A stretch of 32,000 bases of DNA, from contig CAZECW010000003.1 of NCBI GenBank assembly GCA_964510585.1, forward strand, positions 1 to 32,000, read 5' to 3'. Positions 3,948-16,862 of this stretch are shown here, piece by piece. Within the stretch, counting starts at the first letter, position 1, and each line of letters opens with the position of its first letter. Source of the DNA: an uncultured archaeon. GTDB lineage: Archaea; Asgardarchaeota; Jordiarchaeia; Jordiarchaeales; Jordiarchaeaceae. The position numbers and the translations under genes are program-made. A model generated the notes under the pieces. That model was not told where the DNA came from and made no database searches. It saw only the letters and a program-made list of their open reading frames with translations.

Positions 3948-5630
3948 TCACGCAGTCCTTGGGATGGCTAGCTTTCCGAGAAGAAGTTCCCTTGCAGTTT
4001 CAAATGCGGCCATGTGGTCGAAGACAGCTTTTCCTTTAACTTCCTTAGCCTTTCTTAGTAGATTTTCCTCGACTTGTCTTTTTAGCGCACCAATAGCCAG
4101 TGAGCCAATGCCGTAAACTCCGGGTTTCAACTCCTTCTTGTCATCGTTTCTGTCAAGCCCACCTATTCCCAGGGGAGGGACGGCGTTAACGTCGAGGAGC
4201 AATTTTTTCGGTTTGAGGCTTTCTACGTCTTCTCTGCTGAGGAGTTGTACACCTGCCTTTGCAACAGAGAATACCATGTCAGCGTCCTGCACTATTTCCA
4301 TTATTTGCTCCTTGTTTGGAGCGAATATTCCTTTGATTTCTACACCAAACTTTTCGTTTAGATCCGAGGCTACCGTTTTCACATATTGTACACTGGCACC
4401 AGACCAGGTTTCCACCATGTAAACTTTGCAGCCAAGCTTTGCTGCTAATACGCAGGCGAATCTTCCTACCGGTCCTGTTCCCCCTAGAACTGCAACTTTC
4501 ATTTTTTCAATATTGCCCAGATTAAGGGTAACCACGGCTTCTTCAGCTTTTGCTACCAGTGCTGAGGCGGTGGTGCAAGCTCCTCTTGGATCAAAAATTA
4601 TTGGCACTTCGAAGGGCGGCACCAAGGATTTAACGGCTTTCTCGAATATTTCCTGGGCTTGATTCACATTGCTTCCACCGACAAAGATTGCGGTGTATTT
4701 TGCGCCTTTAGGTCCTCGGGAGAATATTATGTCTTGTACCAGTCTTTGAGCGTCTTCAGGCTTTACTCCACCCAGAGGAATGACCACATCGAAACCCGCG
4801 TCGTAAGCCATATTCATGTCAAATGGACTTGCATGCTGGTCAGTATCTAAGAAGTATAATATGTGTTGTCTCTGCTCCTTCTTCTTCACAACTATGGGTA
4901 TTATTTCAACATGGTTAGATTCTAGAAGGTTAGATAGTTCAGTGCTTTCCTCTTTGCTATTTATTTCCTTTTTTGCTTTAACCACGACTAAATCTACATC
5001 TAGATCGGTGCAGAGCTTGGATATTCCGTCTGCGTGACGTGGGTCACATATGAGCATGCCGGTGACATTTTTCTTTTTGATTTCTCTTGCCTGATTTAGG
5101 ACGCCACTCATTATCCACGCTTCGCGAACCCTAAATTTTATGTCGTCTTCAATTTCCTTCAAGTTTTGTTCAAAGTATTGAGCCAAAGTAGCCAGTTTTA
5201 GGAAGTTTTCATCATTCTTTTTTGCTTCTGGATTTTTGGCTAGGACTTTCGTAATCTGTTCAATTAGAATGTTTCTTAGTTCCTGTTTTCTGCTCATTGT
5301 GGACCAGATGTAGTCGCGGGCGTTATCTGCAATGTCCACATAGCTGTAAGGGATTCCATGTTTTTTAAAAACATCCACTAGAGGATTATCGTATAGAAAC
5401 TCTTCAATGCTTCTCATCCCCCTCTCCTCAAGGCAAAAGTCGGGTTTGTACTCTTCGACCATCTTGTTTATGAATTCCCTGTACTCCTTGGACATTATTC
5501 TCAGTTCTGAGAAAAAGTCTTTAGGAGGATTGAATGGTTCTAGCAGGTACCAGTCGATTCCGTATTCGCTTTCAACCATAACCAACCTTAGTTTCTGTCC
5601 CTTCAGTGGCTCTAACTCTAAAACTTCCAT
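3948..5630 (-). CDS. Fusion: N-terminal uncharacterised ~220-250 aa domain plus C-terminal NAD(P)-dependent methylene-H4MPT dehydrogenase (MtdB/MtdA family)
   Basis: From residue 256: SPFDMNMAYDAGFD, QDIIFSRGP, AIFVGG, DPRGACTT, LGGTGPVG, DVNAVPPLGI, GIGSLAIG, matching MtdB-family motifs (SPFDVNMAIDAGF, QDSIFSR, DVNAVPP). GGAGG RBS precedes the ATG. Confidence 0.88.
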   Translation of the reverse strand: MEVLELEPLKGQKLRLVMVESEYGIDWYLLEPFNPPKDFFSELRIMSKEYREFINKMVEEYKPDFCLEERGMRSIEEFLYDNPLVDVFKKHGIPYSYVDIADNARDYIWSTMSRKQELRNILIEQITKVLAKNPEAKKNDENFLKLATLAQYFEQNLKEIEDDIKFRVREAWIMSGVLNQAREIKKKNVTGMLICDPRHADGISKLCTDLDVDLVVVKAKKEINSKEESTELSNLLESNHVEIIPIVVKKKEQRQHILYFLDTDQHASPFDMNMAYDAGFDVVIPLGGVKPEDAQRLVQDIIFSRGPKGAKYTAIFVGGSNVNQAQEIFEKAVKSLVPPFEVPIIFDPRGACTTASALVAKAEEAVVTLNLGNIEKMKVAVLGGTGPVGRFACVLAAKLGCKVYMVETWSGASVQYVKTVASDLNEKFGVEIKGIFAPNKEQIMEIVQDADMVFSVAKAGVQLLSREDVESLKPKKLLLDVNAVPPLGIGGLDRNDDKKELKPGVYGIGSLAIGALKRQVEENLLRKAKEVKGKAVFDHMAAFETARELLLGKLAIPRTA

Positions 5631-5661
5631 TATTCGCCCTCCAAAATAATTTTTTAGTTTT

Positions 5662-6306
5662 TTAGTGTACCAATTCAGTTTGCCTCACACTGGTAGCTGA
5701 TCTCATCGGCAGAACTACCAAGTCTGTTTCGCTCATTTGTTTTGCTAATTCATTGAATAGATTGGATGGGGTGATGTGTATGCAGGTTACTTCTTTTTCA
5801 GGCACTTCGCTGGCCAGGTCGATTAATTGTTTTATTATCCACCTGGCGGTTATCACAGTGTTCATGTATTCCTCTTTTCCGTCTGCTTCCTTCTCGTAGA
5901 ATTCTATTAGGGATTTCAGGTTTTGTGCCTTGTAGGTGCTCGCGTTTTTAGGGTTCTCAGAGAGGAATCTTTCCAATTCTTCCTTTAATTCTTCTATTTT
6001 TTCTCTTAGGTCATCTATTTCCTGTTCCAAATATAGTCGGGCGTTTTGGGGTATTCCTAATCTGAAGAGTGGAACCCCTAACTCTCTGAATTCTTCCGTA
6101 TTCACGCTCTGACCGTTAACGCCAAACATGCAATCTTTGTCTGCAGTGATAAAGTCGGGATGATAGGTTAGAATAACGTTTAGTAAGGAGTTATCGGCCT
6201 GTTCGGTGAAGCAATCAGAATTTTTGGAAGCCTGGGAATTTCCTTCTTCATACAATACCACCGTGAGGATTTTCCCACGCAATTTTTTAATTTCCAATTC
6301 TTCCAT
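5662..6306 (-). CDS. Uncharacterised protein, stand-alone paralog of the N-terminal domain of the downstream Mtd fusion, with a coiled-coil insert
   Basis: GGAGG RBS before ATG 6306 (MEELEIKK). 31 nt gap to the next co-oriented gene. Aligns colinearly with residues 1-217 of ORF 3948-5630. Confidence 0.8.
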   Translation of the reverse strand: MEELEIKKLRGKILTVVLYEEGNSQASKNSDCFTEQADNSLLNVILTYHPDFITADKDCMFGVNGQSVNTEEFRELGVPLFRLGIPQNARLYLEQEIDDLREKIEELKEELERFLSENPKNASTYKAQNLKSLIEFYEKEADGKEEYMNTVITARWIIKQLIDLASEVPEKEVTCIHITPSNLFNELAKQMSETDLVVLPMRSATSVRQTELVH

Positions 6307-6394
6307 CTTTTTCCTTCCTCCATTTATTCTCTGGTTAAACAATAGAAGGATGTTAGGATTTAAAACTAATCTTAACTTGTCTTTTCTGAATTAT

Positions 6395-6410
6395 GACAAT
6401 TTTAATTGTC
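6395..6410. promoter_or_regulatory. Palindromic operator candidate 1 (GACAA-N6-TTGTC)
   Basis: GACAATT-TT-AATTGTC. Lies about 30 nt upstream of a minus-strand TTTTAAAT box (6358-6365) serving the leftward operon. Confidence 0.65.
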
Positions 6411-6549
6411 TTGAAAATTGTTGTATAGTTTGAATAAAAAGAGGAAAATTCATTTTTTTTGACAATTAAATTTTATTCCAAAAATTGTCTGGCAAGTCAA
6501 TTTTATTAATCCAGTTACGATAGCCATTAAGACAATAAGAATGATGTAT

Positions 6550-6569
6550 TTGACAAATATAATTGTCAA
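6550..6569. promoter_or_regulatory. Palindromic operator candidate 2 (TTGACAA-N6-TTGTCAA)
   Basis: TTGACAA-ATATAA-TTGTCAA. Lies just upstream of GAAAA-TTTTTATTAA (6581-6595), the BRE/TATA candidate for the rightward operon. Confidence 0.65.
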
Positions 6570-6620
6570 TTTTAATTTACGAAAATTTTTATTAACCAAT
6601 AAACTCTCCTTGATAAATTG

Positions 6621-9167
6621 GTGAAAAAATATAACGCAGTGACACAGATGGACTTATATAATGTTTTAGGCCACCCTCTCAGAAGAAAAATCCTCCTATT
6701 ATTAGAAAAAGAGGGTTACATGCAGTACTCAGATCTTCTCAAGGAGCTCAACATTGAAACAACGGGACAGTTGAATTTTCACCTCACAAAGCTGGGGAAC
6801 CTAATTACCAAAGAGGGAAAGGCTTACAAGCTCTCGGAAGAAGGAAAAACGGTCATCAAAATAATGGAGTTAAATGAGAAGATTCTCTCAGGTGAAGAGA
6901 TAGAAAGAATCGAGTCTCGAAAAACTGAGTTAAGCCGCGTGGGGATACTTATCTGTACCTGTGGTTCAGAGATTGAGCAGTCAATTAGTGTTGAGGCTTT
7001 GAAGAACCGTGTGTCTCGCATAAATAATGTGGTGTCCGTTGCGGTTTTTGATAATCTTTGTCAGGAGAAGAATCAGAAGAAGATTCAGAAATGGTTTAAG
7101 GACAATTTCATAAATAAGGTGGTTATTGCTGCCTGCAGTCCTCGTACGCACTCTCATATATTTAACCGCATATTTGAGAATCTTATACCCATAACAAACA
7201 TTGATTTTGCTAATATTAGGGAGCAATTATGCTGGGTGAATTCTAAAAAGCCTGTTGAAGCCTTGGAAAAAGCGGGGTTACTCATTGAGGCTGCTGTGGA
7301 GAGGGTTATCCTTCAAAGAGAGATTAAAACCAAAACTGTTGAGGTTCAAAAAAGCGTGGCTGTTATTGGTGGGGGCATTGCGGGTATGAATTTGGCTTTA
7401 AAGTTGGCGGAGGCCGGGTTGAAAGTTTATCTTATTGAAAAGTCGCCTACTCTGGGGGGGAAGGTTGCAAGGTGGAGCAAGATTGAGGGCGTCCTAGACT
7501 GCGCATCCTGTTTCCTCTCGGAACAGATTCTGTATTTGGTGCAGGAGAAAAATATTGAGATTCTCACCAATACTGAAATTCTATCCGTTTCTGGAAATGC
7601 GGGGAACTTCACCATTGAATTGGTTCGCAAGCCACGTTACGTGGATGAAAATAAGTGTACTGGTTGTAAACGGTGTATGAGTATATGCACTATTACTAAG
7701 AAAAACGAGTATGAGTACGGTTTGGATGAGAGGAAGCTAATCTACATTCCCTTTGTTCAGGCCTATCCTTATGCGGCGACCATAGATGAGGAGGATATTG
7801 AGAAATGTAGAGAATGCCGGGTCTGTGAAAGAGCCTGTCTAAATAAAGCCATAAATCTGGATCAGAAGCCTACAACAATGACCATAAAGGTTGGGGCAAA
7901 AGTTCTGGCAATTGGCTCCGACCTTTACCAAGACTTAAAGCTTTATAATCATAACCCGCGTTGGGACATCGTCACCTCTGCGGAGTTTGAGAGAATTCTT
8001 GCCTCTGACGGTCCCACACAGGGCAATCTTGTAAAACTTTCTGATGGCAAGGCGCCGCAAAAAATTGTAATTATTCAGGGTGTGGGCGATTACAGTCTTA
8101 GTTCCGATTACTGTTACATACTGTCCAGAAAGTATCTAGAAGCGATTCGGGAGAAGCTTCCCAGCTGCGAAGTTAAAGTTTTTATAGAGAACAGTAAGAG
8201 CGCTGCAAATAGGTTGGCACTCGCTAACCTGCCGGAAACTGTTCATACTGGCAAAGTATTAGGGATAAAAGTGGAGGGCGAAAGGAAAGTGATAAGTACT
8301 GAGAGGGGAGACTTTGAATCAGACATGGTTATTCTAAACATAGGTATGGTTCCAAGTAGGGAGCTGGCTGAGCTTCGCAAAACTTTGGATTTCGCTTTTG
8401 ATGATAAGGGTTTTATGTCCAAAGAGACACTGAGCTCAGGGATTTTTGGGTGTGGGACTGTTACCGGGCCTAAAGATTATCACACGGCTATAGCGGAATC
8501 TAATGAAGTAGCTCTTCAAATAATTTCTCTATTATCAAGGGATTATTTACTTGCAGACATTAGCGGTATAGATATTGACTATGATAAGTGTGGTTTATGC
8601 GGTTTGTGTATGTCTGTCTGCCCCTTTAACGCTATATCCTGTGAAGACGACAGGATTACCATTGACGATTTCAAGTGTAAGGGCTGCGGAGTCTGCGTAA
8701 GCATTTGCCCCACAAAGGCATTGGAGATGAATGTGATAACAAGAGAAAAGATTCTCAGATCCATAGAAGTTTATAGCAAGTATAGCCACAAACCCAAAAT
8801 TATGGCTTTTTGCTGTGAGCATTGCGGGTATGCGGCGGCGGATGAGGCGGGCCTAAGGAAAATACAGTACCATCCCAATATTTTCGTTGAAATGGTTCCC
8901 TGTACTGGTAGAGTGGACACCGAGTTTATTTTAAAGGCGTTGGAAAAAGGATTCGATGGGGTGCTAGTTGTAGGGTGTAAGTATGGCTCATGCAGGTACA
9001 TAGATGGAATCAACAAGTTGGAGAAAAAAATCAAAATACTGAAAGATGTGGGAATTCCCCAAATAGAGGATAGACTGGTTCTTTCATCGCTAAACGCGGT
9101 GGAAGGCTACAGGTTCGCAGAGATAGTGAACCTAATGCAGAATAAATTGTCGGAGATGATGATGTGA
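6621..9167 (+). CDS. hdrA: Winged-HTH :: HdrA-like flavoprotein :: MvhD triple fusion (start GTG 6621, or TTG 6618 / ATG 6648)
   Basis: Residues ~10-85 are an ArsR-like wHTH (LGHPLRRKILLLL...GQLNFHL..L...Y.LSEEG). HdrA motifs: ICTCG, AACSP, NIREQ, IGGGIAG, DCASC, EFER...GP, GPKD. Four CxxCxxCxxxC motifs. C-terminal MvhD motifs: FCCxxCGYAAAD, PCTGRVD, GCxxGSCRY. Confidence 0.9.
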   Translation: MKKYNAVTQMDLYNVLGHPLRRKILLLLEKEGYMQYSDLLKELNIETTGQLNFHLTKLGNLITKEGKAYKLSEEGKTVIKIMELNEKILSGEEIERIESRKTELSRVGILICTCGSEIEQSISVEALKNRVSRINNVVSVAVFDNLCQEKNQKKIQKWFKDNFINKVVIAACSPRTHSHIFNRIFENLIPITNIDFANIREQLCWVNSKKPVEALEKAGLLIEAAVERVILQREIKTKTVEVQKSVAVIGGGIAGMNLALKLAEAGLKVYLIEKSPTLGGKVARWSKIEGVLDCASCFLSEQILYLVQEKNIEILTNTEILSVSGNAGNFTIELVRKPRYVDENKCTGCKRCMSICTITKKNEYEYGLDERKLIYIPFVQAYPYAATIDEEDIEKCRECRVCERACLNKAINLDQKPTTMTIKVGAKVLAIGSDLYQDLKLYNHNPRWDIVTSAEFERILASDGPTQGNLVKLSDGKAPQKIVIIQGVGDYSLSSDYCYILSRKYLEAIREKLPSCEVKVFIENSKSAANRLALANLPETVHTGKVLGIKVEGERKVISTERGDFESDMVILNIGMVPSRELAELRKTLDFAFDDKGFMSKETLSSGIFGCGTVTGPKDYHTAIAESNEVALQIISLLSRDYLLADISGIDIDYDKCGLCGLCMSVCPFNAISCEDDRITIDDFKCKGCGVCVSICPTKALEMNVITREKILRSIEVYSKYSHKPKIMAFCCEHCGYAAADEAGLRKIQYHPNIFVEMVPCTGRVDTEFILKALEKGFDGVLVVGCKYGSCRYIDGINKLEKKIKILKDVGIPQIEDRLVLSSLNAVEGYRFAEIVNLMQNKLSEMMM

Positions 9168-9922
9168 AACTAAAATTTTCAGCAATCTCCCTTAACTCTT
9201 GCAACGGTTGCATCTCCACCCTTACCTGTCTAGATGTTTTCCTCAACCTTGTAAAATCCGCGGAAATAGTATACTTCCCCTTTGTTGAGGACTCCTACCC
9301 CGCCACAATAAAGGAAGACGAAGAACTAAAATATTCTGACGTTACCCTTGTTGAGGGATGTGTTACCCAGAAGGATGAAGAAATATTACTGAAAAAGCTG
9401 CGAAAAGCATCCAAAAAAATAATTGCACTCGGCGCCTGCGCTATGTTTGGGGGGATAGAAAGCCTATCACAGAATGCTCGAAGGGACCCTCTCTCTAAAA
9501 TCATAGAAATCGATGGATGTATACCGGGTTGCCCCCCACCTGAAAATGTTCTGGGAGCATCTATACTTTCACTAATTGAGGGCAGGAATCTTCCCGAAGC
9601 AAGCAGGAATCTCTGTGCAGTTTGCGATTTGAGGCCCAAACTGGAAAAATTCAAAACAATCCGTATAGAGAAATTACAACCCCAAAAGTTTCCCACCAGC
9701 TGTTTCCTCGACGAAAACGTGCTCTGTTTAGGTCCGGTGACCCGTGAAGGATGCGATGCAAAGTGTATCAAAGTGGGGCTGCCCTGTGAGGGGTGTATGG
9801 GGCCTCCCAACGGTTTAGACTATACTGCTAATGTAATCAACTTCCTCTCAACACTGGAATTATCAGAAAAGTTGAGAACTTATGAAGGAATTATTTTTAG
9901 GCTTCGCCGCCCAAGGACGTGA
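9164..9922 (+). CDS. mvhG: [NiFe]-hydrogenase small subunit, MvhG/VhuG-like (group 3c-type)
   Basis: SCNGC, VEGC, LGACA, PGCPP, plus distal CAVC..CFL..CLGPVT..GC...C...PCEGCMGP. GTG start overlaps the hdrA stop by 4 nt (GTGA). Confidence 0.88.
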   Translation: MKLKFSAISLNSCNGCISTLTCLDVFLNLVKSAEIVYFPFVEDSYPATIKEDEELKYSDVTLVEGCVTQKDEEILLKKLRKASKKIIALGACAMFGGIESLSQNARRDPLSKIIEIDGCIPGCPPPENVLGASILSLIEGRNLPEASRNLCAVCDLRPKLEKFKTIRIEKLQPQKFPTSCFLDENVLCLGPVTREGCDAKCIKVGLPCEGCMGPPNGLDYTANVINFLSTLELSEKLRTYEGIIFRLRRPRT

Positions 9923-9928
9923 AATGGA

Positions 9929-11260
9929 ATGAAGAAAATTATTGAACCGGTTACAAGAATTGAGGGACACGGGAAAATAACAGTATACCTTAATGATAAG
10001 GAAGTCTCCAACGCTAATTTTGACATGTATCTACCTCGAGGATTCGAAAAAATTTTAGTGGGAAAATTGGTGGAAGATGTTCCCAGAATCACATCCCGAA
10101 TATGTGGACTCTGCTCCTCAGCACACGCAATAGCAGCCTGCAAAGCATTGGAAAAAATATATGACGTTACCCCATCTAAATCCTCCATTCTTATGAGAAA
10201 ACTCCTCCTTGCCGGAGAGCTTATAAGATCCCATGCATTGCACTTCTTTTACTTTGCACTTCCCGACCTAAAAGCATTGATAGAAAATGATTATGAAAGG
10301 TATAGTGTCCAACAGTTCTCAAAAATAGAAACAGACCTAGTTGAAAAATTGTTCAGAGTAATTAGAATTGGAAATGAGCTCCTAGACCGCATTGGGGGAA
10401 GGGTACCCCACCCAGTAACCAGCGTAGTGGGCGGAATCTCTAAAAAATTAACAGAAAAAGAAGTGGTAGGACTACAGTCTAACCTTAGAAGAGGCGCCAG
10501 CACAGTGAGAGGAATAATAGAGAAACTATTAGAGTACATGGGTAAGATTGGTGAGCCGCAAGAATTCTTCAACATGGACGAAACAGCATTTATGGCACTA
10601 AATGAAGGCGGCAACTTCAACCTATATGAAGGAAAACTCCGCATCACCAAAGAAAAAAAGATTCTGGCAGACTTCGAACCAGAACAATACACCAAATACA
10701 TAGAAATTGAGAAAAAATCACAGGGAATCCAAATTAAACTTAACGGAGAAAAGCTAGTATTAACCGGGCCCATGGCCAGAAACCAAATAATCGAGAGATA
10801 CGGGGCCTACGAAGTACACAGCTTGATGGAAGAAGTGCCCACCAGCTGGAAGGAAAGCCTTCTTTACTCAAACTTTCTCAGACTCATAGAAATACTTGCC
10901 TCGATATACGATGCAATACTCATACTCAACGAGCCAGAACTAATGGAAGAACGAGAACTTCCCCAACTCAACAAAATCGCCACACCAATAGGCATCGGAG
11001 TGGTAGAAGCACCCAGAGGAACACTAATACACCAGTACAAAGTAAACACTAAAAACACAGTTGAATCAGCAACCATCATCACCCCCACAGAACTCAACCT
11101 CCCCACCATCAACCAAAAATTACTAGAAACATGCAGAGACAGCTACCAAAACACACAAAACATAGAGAAACTAAAAGAAAACGCAAAAAGAGTCATAAGA
11201 ACATTCGACCCCTGCGTCTCATGCGCAACCCACCTAATCGTCAAAATAATCCACCAATAA
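9929..11260 (+). CDS. mvhA: [NiFe]-hydrogenase large subunit, MvhA-like
   Basis: EPVTRIEGHG, PRGFE, L1 RICGLC, EAPRGTLIH, L2 DPCVSCATH followed by an 8-aa extension. Confidence 0.9.
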   Translation: MKKIIEPVTRIEGHGKITVYLNDKEVSNANFDMYLPRGFEKILVGKLVEDVPRITSRICGLCSSAHAIAACKALEKIYDVTPSKSSILMRKLLLAGELIRSHALHFFYFALPDLKALIENDYERYSVQQFSKIETDLVEKLFRVIRIGNELLDRIGGRVPHPVTSVVGGISKKLTEKEVVGLQSNLRRGASTVRGIIEKLLEYMGKIGEPQEFFNMDETAFMALNEGGNFNLYEGKLRITKEKKILADFEPEQYTKYIEIEKKSQGIQIKLNGEKLVLTGPMARNQIIERYGAYEVHSLMEEVPTSWKESLLYSNFLRLIEILASIYDAILILNEPELMEERELPQLNKIATPIGIGVVEAPRGTLIHQYKVNTKNTVESATIITPTELNLPTINQKLLETCRDSYQNTQNIEKLKENAKRVIRTFDPCVSCATHLIVKIIHQ

Positions 11261-14080: not shown

Positions 14081-16786
14081 TTATGTTGGGAAGGCTGTTT
14101 TTATTTCTTCGTAGAGTTCGGGGAAGCTGTTTAACCATTCTTTTCTTTCTTTTTTGAGTTGTTGAACCATTTCTTCTATTTGCTCAATGCTGTACCACCT
14201 TTCTAGTTTAAATTTTTCCATGTCTACGCCTTCCACCTCTTTGGGCACTAATGTGCCGAAGTATGGTTCGGGTATCCACTCTATGTTGTTTCTGGCTATG
14301 CCTCGGATTATGGAGGCCATTTCTTTTATCTGGATTCGTTCCACTTTTCTCTTAATTATGCTTATTCCTTCTTCATTTACTTCTCTAAGTTCTCCCACTC
14401 CACCGGTGTTTATAAGGTAGCACTGCACCTTGTCTCCCAGTCCTTTTAGTATTTCGTAGAACCTGTTTCCCTCTTGGCCTTTGCTTCCCACTATGAAGGG
14501 ATTTGTTCCTACTTCGCGTACTGACTGTCCTGCTCTTTTGGGGTCGCTTCCCGAACTTTCAATTGATTCTCCAAGCATGAATGCGGCTGCGGCTTGTTCA
14601 ATGGTTAGTTTGGATGCTATTGGTACTACGGTGTTTCTTCTGGTAATCATTAGGACTATTAGTCCGTCGACGTCTTTTAGGGGAGGGAGGTTAACTGAGG
14701 GGCTTTTGTACTTTCCAAAGTCGTCTCTCTGCATTATTCCGCGTCCGTTGCCTGTGAGTATGTCGCTTTCAAATAGCACGTTTCCCTTGTAGTCCACCAT
14801 AACGTTTTCCAGTATAGCGCTGGGTTTGGTCACCGCATTGTAGATTAGGGGCTGTATTTCTGGGTTTAGGTCTTCTGTTTTTAGGTAGAATCCTCTCTCG
14901 GTTCCTAGGGCTGAGCCGTCTGGTCTTAGTGCTACGAAGTCGTCTTGTACTATTTCGATTCCCTCACCATCTGCTTCGTTAAGGTCGTGGGTGTGGCAGC
15001 TGTGGGTGGTTTTACCTGTTGCGGTGAGTCCGAATATTAGCGTATTGTACGTTTTTATTTTTCCCGTTTTGGCATCTCTTGCTCTTATGATTTTTGCTCC
15101 GGCGTGTAATCCGAGCATTCCCTGCTGTTTGGCGAACCACATGGCCATTCTCAAGAAGCCCTTTTTAGCCTCGCCGTAATAGTCGGTTCCCAGAATGAAT
15201 GTTACTCCAATTTCTGGAAATACTATTATTTGTCGGTCCTTTTCCTGCCATTCTGGAATGTAAACTATGTATAGGTGGGGGCCGTTATAGTTTTCTTTTG
15301 GGTCGAATAGTGTTTGGTTGACCATGTGGGCCAGCCTAATCATTTCTCCCCTGTGTACGGAGACGTAGAGGGTGCATCTGGGTGTGAAGTAGGGGTTATC
15401 TCCCATGGTGCGGTCAGTGCACACAAATGGTGCGCTCTTAATGTATTGGAGGACGTCGCTCATTGTTTTGGGTAGGTTTTTCATAAGTTCCTTCTGTTTG
15501 GGGCTCATCTCGTATTGGACTACTTCTGGGCTTCCCACGATTATGGTTAGGCCTGCGCTTCTGTTTTTCACGGTGGAGACGAAATTATAGTTGTTGAACT
15601 TTGTTTTGGTGCCATAGGCTTCCGCCATCTCCCTGATTTTTTGTTCTGATAGGTGTTTAACATTGCTTCTATTGTAGAGCTTTTCCACGGCTTGCCTTAT
15701 TTCGTTTAGGTCTATTTGGGAGATGATTTCGTCAATTTCGGCTTTTGCCCTCTCCTTTTCTTCTATTAATGGTTCGAGATATTCTTTGGTGGTAATTATT
15801 CTTCTTACTTCCTTTTGCATTTCCAAAAGGGGATGGGCTAAATTCAGGTAGTATACCGCTGCGAATTTGAAAATATTCTTGTAAAATTCAATTTCAAGCT
15901 TTTCTCGCTTACTGCTCCGTACCATTAGGTAGGGATTGAAGAATGGCTGCTGGGAATGTGTGAGAATCTTTATGGCTTCCTGTGGGGTGAGACGCTTAGC
16001 AATTCTTGGATCCTTGCGATAATTTACAAGTAGAAAAATGAGCTTAATACGGGTGGTGTCCACATATTTTTCATTTCCACCTATCCACCAAGGGTCGAGC
16101 ATAAAGTGGTTATTTTCCTTTTTGCTTTTTTCGTATAGTGCCTGGAGTCTTGGATAAATTTTTATGAGTTCTTTTTTTAGGAAGAATTTTCTCTCAGAGA
16201 CCGATGTAGATATGCGCCCCTTTTCTCCACCAAGTTGCTCCACATATATTATGTCGTCTGAGTGTATTCTGGCTCTATCCATCTCTAAAAGGAGGAATGC
16301 ATTTGTGCTGACTCCCCGCCCAGTTTCACCCATGAAGGCTACGCCCTCACCATTAATGTCTACCAGACTACCCCTCAGAAAGTTTAATCTCTCCTGTTCC
16401 TCGCAGACATCAGCAACAATCCCTAGGGCTAATGCCCGAACAAATTCATAGTTTCCAATATTGAATACTATTCCTGTTTTGGTTTCAGAGTTGTAATATA
16501 TTCCGGGAGGCTCGTCGTAAAGTCCAGTAGCTGCATATATTACTCCGTGGGGGCGAAGGTTGCGGTCTATGGCTGCGGGGAACCAGTTTTCTCTCCAAAA
16601 ATCATCTAAATGGGGTTCGTTGGTTCTCAATTGAATTATGTAGCCGTTTATGTTTGCGTTCCAAACGTAAATAGAATCGTAACCCATATGCCTCTCTGCT
16701 TTTTGAACCAATTCTTCCCTTTTCTCACGAGAGATTCCTACGTCGATAACGCCTTTCTTTCCGGGAACCTGCTCCATTTCAACCAT
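14081..16786 (-). CDS. pckA: ATP-dependent phosphoenolpyruvate carboxykinase with an extra N-terminal PEPCK/HprK-like P-loop domain (~901 aa)
   Basis: C-terminal ~560 aa carry YYGEAKKG, LHAG, FGLTATGKTT, VQDD, ERGFYLKT, ENV, NGRG, NPF, YLINTG. N-terminal ~340 aa carry LRGSLVDINGEGVAFMGETGRGVST...IHSDD. GAGGAG RBS is 8 nt before ATG 16786. Confidence 0.88.
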   Translation of the reverse strand: MVEMEQVPGKKGVIDVGISREKREELVQKAERHMGYDSIYVWNANINGYIIQLRTNEPHLDDFWRENWFPAAIDRNLRPHGVIYAATGLYDEPPGIYYNSETKTGIVFNIGNYEFVRALALGIVADVCEEQERLNFLRGSLVDINGEGVAFMGETGRGVSTNAFLLLEMDRARIHSDDIIYVEQLGGEKGRISTSVSERKFFLKKELIKIYPRLQALYEKSKKENNHFMLDPWWIGGNEKYVDTTRIKLIFLLVNYRKDPRIAKRLTPQEAIKILTHSQQPFFNPYLMVRSSKREKLEIEFYKNIFKFAAVYYLNLAHPLLEMQKEVRRIITTKEYLEPLIEEKERAKAEIDEIISQIDLNEIRQAVEKLYNRSNVKHLSEQKIREMAEAYGTKTKFNNYNFVSTVKNRSAGLTIIVGSPEVVQYEMSPKQKELMKNLPKTMSDVLQYIKSAPFVCTDRTMGDNPYFTPRCTLYVSVHRGEMIRLAHMVNQTLFDPKENYNGPHLYIVYIPEWQEKDRQIIVFPEIGVTFILGTDYYGEAKKGFLRMAMWFAKQQGMLGLHAGAKIIRARDAKTGKIKTYNTLIFGLTATGKTTHSCHTHDLNEADGEGIEIVQDDFVALRPDGSALGTERGFYLKTEDLNPEIQPLIYNAVTKPSAILENVMVDYKGNVLFESDILTGNGRGIMQRDDFGKYKSPSVNLPPLKDVDGLIVLMITRRNTVVPIASKLTIEQAAAAFMLGESIESSGSDPKRAGQSVREVGTNPFIVGSKGQEGNRFYEILKGLGDKVQCYLINTGGVGELREVNEEGISIIKRKVERIQIKEMASIIRGIARNNIEWIPEPYFGTLVPKEVEGVDMEKFKLERWYSIEQIEEMVQQLKKERKEWLNSFPELYEEIKTAFPT

Positions 16787-16862
16787 TCTCATTACTCCTC
16801 GGACAGGACATCCTAGCCCACAAGTCAATACGTTTTTTTTCAGATACCAAGTTAACTACACC

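Follow-up and report, generated by a model that had tools for sequence, protein, structure and literature searches.

Two tandem genes with a common domain

The stretch of DNA analyzed here, called the window throughout, comprises 32,000 nucleotides (positions 1 to 32,000 of contig CAZECW010000003.1, assembly GCA_964510585.1) from an uncultured Asgard archaeon of the Jordarchaeia. Its subject is a protein domain that is encoded twice, by two tandem genes on the minus strand. The upstream gene (5662-6306) encodes a free protein of 214 aa, P0002, predicted to consist of a TIKI/TraB-like alpha/beta core and a helical hairpin, and is separated by a spacer of 31 nt (5631-5661) from the gene for the 560-aa fused protein P0001 (3948-5630). 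The start of the free protein was set at the ATG common to all orthologs, the longest open reading frame (ORF) beginning with a TTG at position 6342. Judged from structural model and residue conservation, the N-terminal domain of the fused protein, which belongs to class A as defined below, occupies residues 1-220 (4971-5630, minus strand). It is followed by a Lys/Glu-rich linker (residues 221-255, 4866-4970) of low model confidence, with a predicted local distance difference test score (pLDDT) below 50 at residues 223-229 and 238-255, and by a complete MtdA/B-type NAD(P)-dependent methylene-tetrahydromethanopterin (methylene-H4MPT) dehydrogenase domain with a GTGPVG nucleotide loop (residues 256-560 plus stop codon, 3948-4865). 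Positions 4866-6306 correspond to residues 1-255 of the fused protein plus the free gene.

A first-pass annotation of the window, made from the letters alone, had proposed that the free protein and the extension of the fused one are colinear copies of the same domain. The proposal was confirmed: the free protein and residues 1-255 of the fused protein are paralogs. BLASTP of the free protein against fused residues 1-260 gave a significant alignment with an E-value of 2e-9 and 22% identity over 231 colinear columns, nearly end-to-end in both partners, and the motif pairs listed in the annotation were all recovered in this pairwise alignment as well as in an alignment of 19 sequences (A1). The central hairpin that it described is predicted in both copies, with helices at 102-132 and 141-183 in the fused protein and at 87-117 and 125-166 in the free protein. 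A profile of the family finds exactly two matches in the 3.78-Mb genome, namely these two genes (E-values 3e-74 and 6e-57). The short-spacer tandem of free and fused gene recurs at other Asgard loci, and orthologs of the free protein, at 64-92% identity, carry only the annotation "hypothetical".

In the C-terminal half, residues 269-348 of P0001 match Pfam Mpt_N (PF09176) with an E-value of 2e-30 and 105 bits against a cut-off of 27, a Rossmann domain was matched in addition, and P0001 is the sole Mpt_N protein of its genome. The C-terminal 305 residues align with residues 3-286 of the 287 residues of solved MtdA (1lu9; E-value 2e-38) and with 6tlk (E-value 8e-40). Since the alignment with 1lu9 covers practically the entire enzyme, characterized MtdA has no such extension, as the first-pass annotation had stated. 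The genome contains Mch and Mtd, which act on H4MPT, as well as FolD, so that its context favors neither H4MPT nor tetrahydrofolate as substrate and neither NAD nor NADP as cofactor.

Distribution and arrangements

In word-indexed searches, orthologs of 560 aa were found in metagenome-assembled genomes (MAGs) of Jordarchaeia/Freyarchaeia at 70-92% identity, and relatives in Promethearchaeota at 32-38%. An exhaustive profile search returned 114 representative clusters, with Mpt_N present in every long member tested. The family, including its full-length fusion, occurs in 149 of 400 Asgard species genomes, with up to 5-7 copies each. When the GTDB species genomes were scanned with a full-length alignment (A6), 583 loci were found to encode a relative, and the best 80 of these 583 were examined. 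All 80 carry the full-length fusion; 41 derive from Bathyarchaeia, and the others include Promethearchaeota, Thor-, Hermod-, Hod-, Odin- and Jordarchaeia together with a MAG labeled Korarchaeia and a 'Methanobacteriota' MAG. Among the same 80, the free paralog of the second class (class B, see below) was observed only at Asgard loci, and in most loci from Loki, Hermod, Hod, Odin and Jord lineages its gene immediately precedes the fused one.

The domain is also tied to MtdB where the two are not joined in the usual manner. In a Loki genus (L049, 8495-10905) a three-gene array encodes a class B protein of 209 aa, a class A protein of 243 aa and MtdB; the split falls within the linker, and the ORFs for class A and MtdB overlap by 17 nt. 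Two Loki genera have such split genes, with open frames of 241-253 aa, in many of their genomes. In the protein P0060 (locus L017) the order is reversed, the domain (residues 321-488) following MtdB, and a second, free copy of 183 aa is encoded downstream (hhalign E-value 3e-22). The tie between domain and MtdB thus takes three independent forms, fused, split and reversed, and the association is obligate. That the fusion might be an assembly or gene-calling artefact of this particular genome found no support and can safely be dismissed, as it is refuted by the distribution: the same open frame of 550-580 aa is present in hundreds of independent assemblies, including closed genomes.

Three further loci are of interest in their own right. 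In a Loki genus (L042, G148:C8:261313-266146) the array is duplicated and reads class B, fused gene, class B, free class A, second fused gene, so that five family members lie within 5 kb and adjoin one HdrA-MvhG-MvhA operon. A contig labeled Candidatus Deferrimicrobium, a bacterium (L059, DATKTP010000251.1), has an Asgard-type arrangement of class B, fused MtdB and divergent HdrA, for which mis-binning is more likely than transfer. A 152,819-bp contig (L032, Logan SRR26786787) encodes at 8001-9665 a full-length fusion, P0054, on a long branch and with all site residues kept. This contig carries unidirectional small ORFs and genes for thymidylate synthase, orotidine monophosphate decarboxylase, RNA ligase, a Tad4-like protein, an HD phosphohydrolase and a phosphoribosyltransferase; several of its proteins match PHROGs, and it has no class B partner. 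It may represent a large archaeal virus or mobile element that carries the fusion as an auxiliary gene of one-carbon (C1) or nucleotide metabolism.

Two classes and their conserved residues

In an alignment of 62 sequences (A2) the family divides cleanly into two classes; residues are numbered according to the fused copy P0001. Class A proteins are either fused or free with a length of about 230-265 aa. In a class A alignment (A4) that takes in sequences grouping with Bathyarchaeia loci in the tree, E69, Y107, R169 and W172 are invariant over the sampled lineages, and E20, E22, E68, G71, R73, D99, H199 and G202 are conserved to at least 90%. In the putative site formed by these residues, Glu-x-Glu follows strand 1, Glu-Glu strand 2 and Asp strand 3; an invariant Arg and, past strand 4, His-x-x-Gly complete it.

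Class B proteins are free, have a length of about 200-220 aa and form one clade in a maximum-likelihood tree (support 100/99). They exhibit Ile/Val68, Asp69, Asp99, Tyr107, Arg/Lys169, Trp172 and Leu/Ile/Met199. P0002 and its Jordarchaeial orthologs, which sit on a long branch (length 1.5), have diverged further and have Ala68, Asp69, Gly99, Thr169 and Leu199. An acidic residue is present at position 69 in 60 of the 62 family members. The earlier suggestion of an active fused copy and a degenerate free copy, the latter devoid of the Glu, Arg and His that the former retains, therefore appears largely right at the level of sequence. The fused copy keeps all three and the free copy lacks the His and the Arg, but the free copy has kept an acid, Asp, at position 69. 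A complex prediction with class A residues 1-225 and the free protein, based on separate alignments, gave a score of 0.00 without controls and has no bearing on their association either way.

Predicted fold

AlphaFold2 models of the fused N-domain and of the free protein (pLDDT 81.4 and 80.6, respectively) exhibit the same topology, in which five strands and helices alternate and a helical hairpin, about 80 residues long, is inserted after strand 3. In the model of the fused N-domain the strands comprise residues 13-20, 65-69, 95-98, 188-195 and 213-217, and the predicted structure has the central parallel beta-sheet core with flanking helices that is typical of the TIKI/TraB/ChaN/Ere proteins. 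In Foldseek searches against AlphaFold DB clusters both models retrieved their own cluster and then TraB, TraB/GumN and the "Haem-binding uptake Tiki superfamily ChaN", with E-values for the TraB/GumN/ChaN matches from 1.7e-5 to about 1e-2 and probabilities of 0.9-1.0. In a shape search of the ESM Atlas the first named family outside the domain's own was again TraB/GumN (template modeling score 0.48/0.50 over 150 residues, root-mean-square deviation 3.7). Foldseek against the PDB gave no match at an E-value of 0.001 or below, and an all-against-all structural search with the model of the free protein was swamped by matches to helical hairpins. A language-model neighbor score of 0.80-0.81 serves as a lead only.

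Defining features of the TIKI superfamily are a parallel-sheet core and a site of two His and two Glu with a conserved basic residue, as established by mutagenesis in RRSP (PMC6254334). Mapped on RRSP, the class A residues E20, E22, E69, R169 and H199 correspond to E3900, H3902, E3930, R4001 and H4030. The comparison was made with seven Asgard proteins that are bona fide TraB, including one encoded in the genome studied here. The strand-2 Glu is represented by E69, located six residues past a conserved Pro in the domain as in TraB. R169 takes the place of the basic residue (R4001 in RRSP, the E-R-D motif in TraB) and is paired by hhalign with the TraB Arg, and H199 and G202 supply the late-strand His of the G-x-G-H-x-x-G motif. 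His-x-x-Gly is common to both families, and the distance from Arg to His is 30 residues here vs 28 in TraB. The hhalign match is weak, with the figures given below; it pairs the segment R169...H199 exactly with the E-R-D...G-A-G-H segment of TraB, and K-P-D-F-C-L-E-E with P-D-V-V-A-V-E-L-D of TraB (E-value 0.08). The resemblance to the TraB/TIKI/ChaN/EreA fold that the first-pass annotation had noticed appears largely right; it is supported by Foldseek with both models and by the colinear motifs and weakly by sequence profiles, and Pfam gives no match.

The neighboring hydrogenase operon

On the plus strand, an operon of three genes (6618-11260) diverges from the gene pair. It encodes a fusion of a winged helix-turn-helix (wHTH) domain with HdrA and MvhD (6618-9167), an MvhG-like small subunit (9164-9922) and an MvhA-like [NiFe] large subunit (9929-11260). 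The wHTH domain (DUF7347) comprises residues 12-82 of the fusion, and neither HdrB nor HdrC is encoded adjacently. The divergent promoter region in between (6307-6617) contains two perfect GACAA-N6-TTGTC palindromes (6395-6410 and 6552-6567); there are no others in the 32-kb window, and 0.04 would be expected by chance.

The proximity of module and hydrogenase is not restricted to this locus. A hydrogenase adjoins the module, in divergent or co-directional orientation, in 12 of 25 loci with long flanks. The divergent layout with class B upstream of the fused gene is found at L031, L033, L042, L043, L049, L050 and L052 among others, and at these distant Asgard loci the N-domains are only 35-41% identical to the copy in the window. 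Distant Asgards likewise keep the HTH-bearing form of HdrA beside the MtdB module. In Thor-type and some other lineages (L038, L039, L054, L107, L113-L115, L120) HdrA, MvhG, MvhA and the fused gene follow each other on one strand, and class B is lacking. In other Loki genera the gene pair lies a few kb from different HdrA-like genes. Within the genus of the present genome, an ortholog of wHTH-HdrA with 86-97% identity is present in all four genomes that contain the module (G000, G118, G119, G121). The module is missing from G117 (closed, 100% complete) and G120 (97% complete); neither of these two genomes has the ortholog, and their best HdrA match is a paralog of 37% identity that has no HTH and is of the selenocysteine type (in-frame TGA).

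At the locus with the reversed fusion (L017, 4384-8731, GCA_030596445.1) the genes after the fusion and the 183-aa copy encode first an NfnAB-like pair (DHODB_Fe-S_bind plus Fer4_20/Pyr_redox_2) and then a homolog of URO-D-type methyltransferases and a CCG protein resembling HdrD. These neighbors hint at a tie of the module to NADPH/ferredoxin redox balancing.

C1 enzymes of the genome and energetics

Besides the NAD(P)-type fused MtdB the genome contains a canonical Mtd/Mch pair, the genes for F420-dependent Mtd and Mch lying at most 3 kb apart (C58:21850-25426), and FolD; Fhs was not found in the genome. A role of the domain as a necessary stand-in for a missing cyclohydrolase was rejected, since Mch, F420-dependent Mtd and FolD are all present.

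The methenyl/methylene-H4MPT couple has a potential of about -390 mV and NAD(P) of -320 mV; reduction driven by NAD(P)H is therefore uphill and oxidation easy. In either direction it would be physiologically sensible to couple the reaction to a hydrogenase producing or using NAD(P)H and ferredoxin.

Elsewhere in the window (14081-16828, minus strand) a protein of 915 aa matches PEPCK_ATP only at residues 385-870, and about 380 residues at its N-terminus have no Pfam match.

Interpretation and alternatives

The domain is real, widespread and unannotated, and it is probably a variant of a known superfamily. The family is undescribed and would most likely constitute a remote, remodeled branch of the TIKI/TraB/ChaN superfamily with an inserted hairpin of about 80 residues; we regard homology to this superfamily, in a non-canonical variant, as probable. 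Class A is an integral component of the methylene-H4MPT dehydrogenase of NAD(P) type in Bathyarchaeia, Asgards and some other archaeal MAGs. There it may contribute another functional site, of a hydrolase type or for ligand binding, working in cis with the dehydrogenase. Class B would be a non-catalytic partner, a pseudoenzyme, that probably pairs with class A through the hairpins. In Asgards the module may work together and be co-regulated with the wHTH-HdrA-MvhD/MvhG/MvhA hydrogenase, and the interconversion of methylene- and methenyl-H4MPT may be linked via NAD(P)H, exchanged between module and hydrogenase, to uptake or release of H2. A remodeled TIKI/TraB/ChaN branch with a second site in class A, a partner in class B and a link to the hydrogenase is the best overall explanation that we can offer, and we give it slightly better than even chances. 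The interpretation put forward in the first-pass annotation is, as a whole, partly supported; the heteromer and the gating of methylene-H4MPT oxidation that it suggested would be possibilities.

Several observations weigh against this explanation. Neither Pfam nor NCBIfam matches the domain in any of the 62 members, a sequence-profile search of the PDB yields only chance-level matches to inositol trisphosphate 3-kinase, and the hhalign comparison with the seven Asgard TraB proteins is weak (probability 8.6%, P 0.0039). The first catalytic His of TIKI, invariant in Asgard TraB, is replaced by Glu in class A (V-E20-S-E22, at least 90%), which makes a hydrolase activity uncertain. Furthermore, there is no obvious missing reaction, as the genome has Mch, F420-dependent Mtd and FolD. 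Finally, within flanks of 2.5 kb class B and HdrA-MvhD are absent from all 41 Bathyarchaeia loci, two of which have no more than a weak MvhG-like match; since the fused protein of Bathyarchaeia has neither class B nor hydrogenase next to it, neither partner is needed for its core function.

A purely structural role is a serious rival to a second functional site. The module would then have neither catalytic activity nor ligand, and its hairpin would oligomerize MtdB or dock it onto HdrA-Mvh, with the free paralog as an additional scaffold subunit. The long antiparallel helical hairpin kept in both classes, the retention of the fold without the His in class B and the Asgard synteny of the module with HdrA-Mvh all agree with such a role. 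However, the best-conserved class A residues are charged or polar and located at the C-terminal ends of strands, outside the hairpin, and they are kept in Bathyarchaeia, whose loci have neither a hydrogenase nor a class B gene alongside; we consider the structural role a genuine possibility, albeit a minority one. If instead the likeness of the motifs to TIKI/TraB/ChaN were convergent or due to chance, the domain would be a generic three-layer alpha/beta domain. This is unlikely, as nearly all named AlphaFold DB matches of two separately built models fall in one superfamily, five motifs are colinear with near-identical spacing, and ChaN was aligned over 147 residues vs 99-121 for methyltransferases.

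A third alternative, chemically plausible, is a bifunctional enzyme in the manner of FolD, with the N-domain as methenyl-H4MPT cyclohydrolase or formyl-H4MPT deformylase employing water activated by Glu and His. Consecutive steps of a pathway are commonly fused, and here the domain is bound to MtdB in fused, split and reversed forms with its putative site residues conserved. In addition, sites of the TIKI/Ere type activate water against a carbonyl-type carbon (PMC6254334). On the other hand, the genome encodes canonical Mch and FolD, the former close to F420-dependent Mtd, and the TIKI site lacks the first His; a FolD-like second activity seems quite improbable to us. A broader proposal is that the TIKI-like module adapts a bacterial-type, NAD(P)-dependent MtdB to the archaeal Wood-Ljungdahl pathway, either as a methenyl-/formyl-H4MPT hydrolase in a bifunctional enzyme or as an adaptor that, with the His-less paralog, connects it to HdrA-Mvh. 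We put this forward tentatively and think it rather unlikely as stated. Should the adaptor version be true, a single regulated complex would couple H2 and methenyl/methylene-H4MPT and have a function analogous to that of Hmd, or of Frh plus Mtd, in methanogens.

Genome annotations name the proteins of Asgards and Bathyarchaeia simply MtdB or Mtd, and almost half of such an annotated MtdB is a conserved unnamed domain with an enzyme-like set of residues. In Asgards a degenerate paralog and a genetic connection with an HdrA-Mvh hydrogenase come in addition. For termite-gut Bathyarchaeia, a methylene-H4MPT dehydrogenase nearer to the NADH-dependent bacterial homolog was reported (Loh et al., PMC7886697). 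In the literature on MtdB with Asgard, Lokiarchaeota or Bathyarchaeia we found no description of the N-terminal domain or the paralog. If the domain is catalytic or couples to hydrogenase, models of carbon and electron flow for Asgards and Bathyarchaeia, which feed syntrophy-based scenarios of eukaryogenesis, would need revision, including the thermodynamically awkward NAD(P)H-driven reduction of methenyl-H4MPT. The family may also offer a clean enzyme/pseudoenzyme pair for study.

Comparison with known systems

With TraB/PrgY/GumN (PF01963) the domain shares the predicted alpha/beta core and the order and near-identical spacing of the motifs. Both have a motif at strand 1; Pro-Asp-x-x-x-x-Glu follows strand 2 and Val-Asp strand 3, and strand 4 is preceded by a helix with the Arg and followed by His-x-x-Gly. 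In contrast to TraB, the domain has no Pfam match, has Glu in place of the GT-x-H His, carries the hairpin of about 80 residues instead of the TraB insert and is always tied to MtdB, and the genome has a separate canonical TraB gene. Compared to ChaN (PDB 2g5g; PF04187), TIKI, RRSP and the erythromycin esterases, the second His (H3902 in RRSP) is a Glu in the domain, which in addition occurs outside any protease or esterase context. ChaN is non-catalytic and periplasmic, whereas the domain described here is cytosolic and fused to a dehydrogenase.

The MtdA/MtdB enzymes of methylotrophic bacteria share Mpt_N and the nucleotide-binding loop and align end-to-end with the C-terminal 305 residues. 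The bacterial enzymes have 287-303 aa and no N-terminal domain, whereas the enzyme described here follows 255 additional residues, of which a paralog is encoded upstream. FolD sets a precedent for a C1-carrier dehydrogenase and a second, hydrolytic activity on one polypeptide. In FolD, however, there is one active-site cleft in an unrelated arrangement, and here a cyclohydrolase activity is not required with Mch and FolD present.

Physical or genetic coupling of HdrA modules to enzymes of C1 pathways is established in other organisms. The neighboring operon encodes homologs of HdrA, MvhD, MvhG and MvhA, as in the electron-bifurcating MvhADG-HdrABC hydrogenase of methanogens, but has no HdrB or HdrC adjacent, and its HdrA has an N-terminal wHTH. 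In contrast to MvhADG-HdrABC and the HdrA-linked C1 enzymes, the enzyme linked here is an NAD(P)-type dehydrogenase without a redox cofactor of its own.

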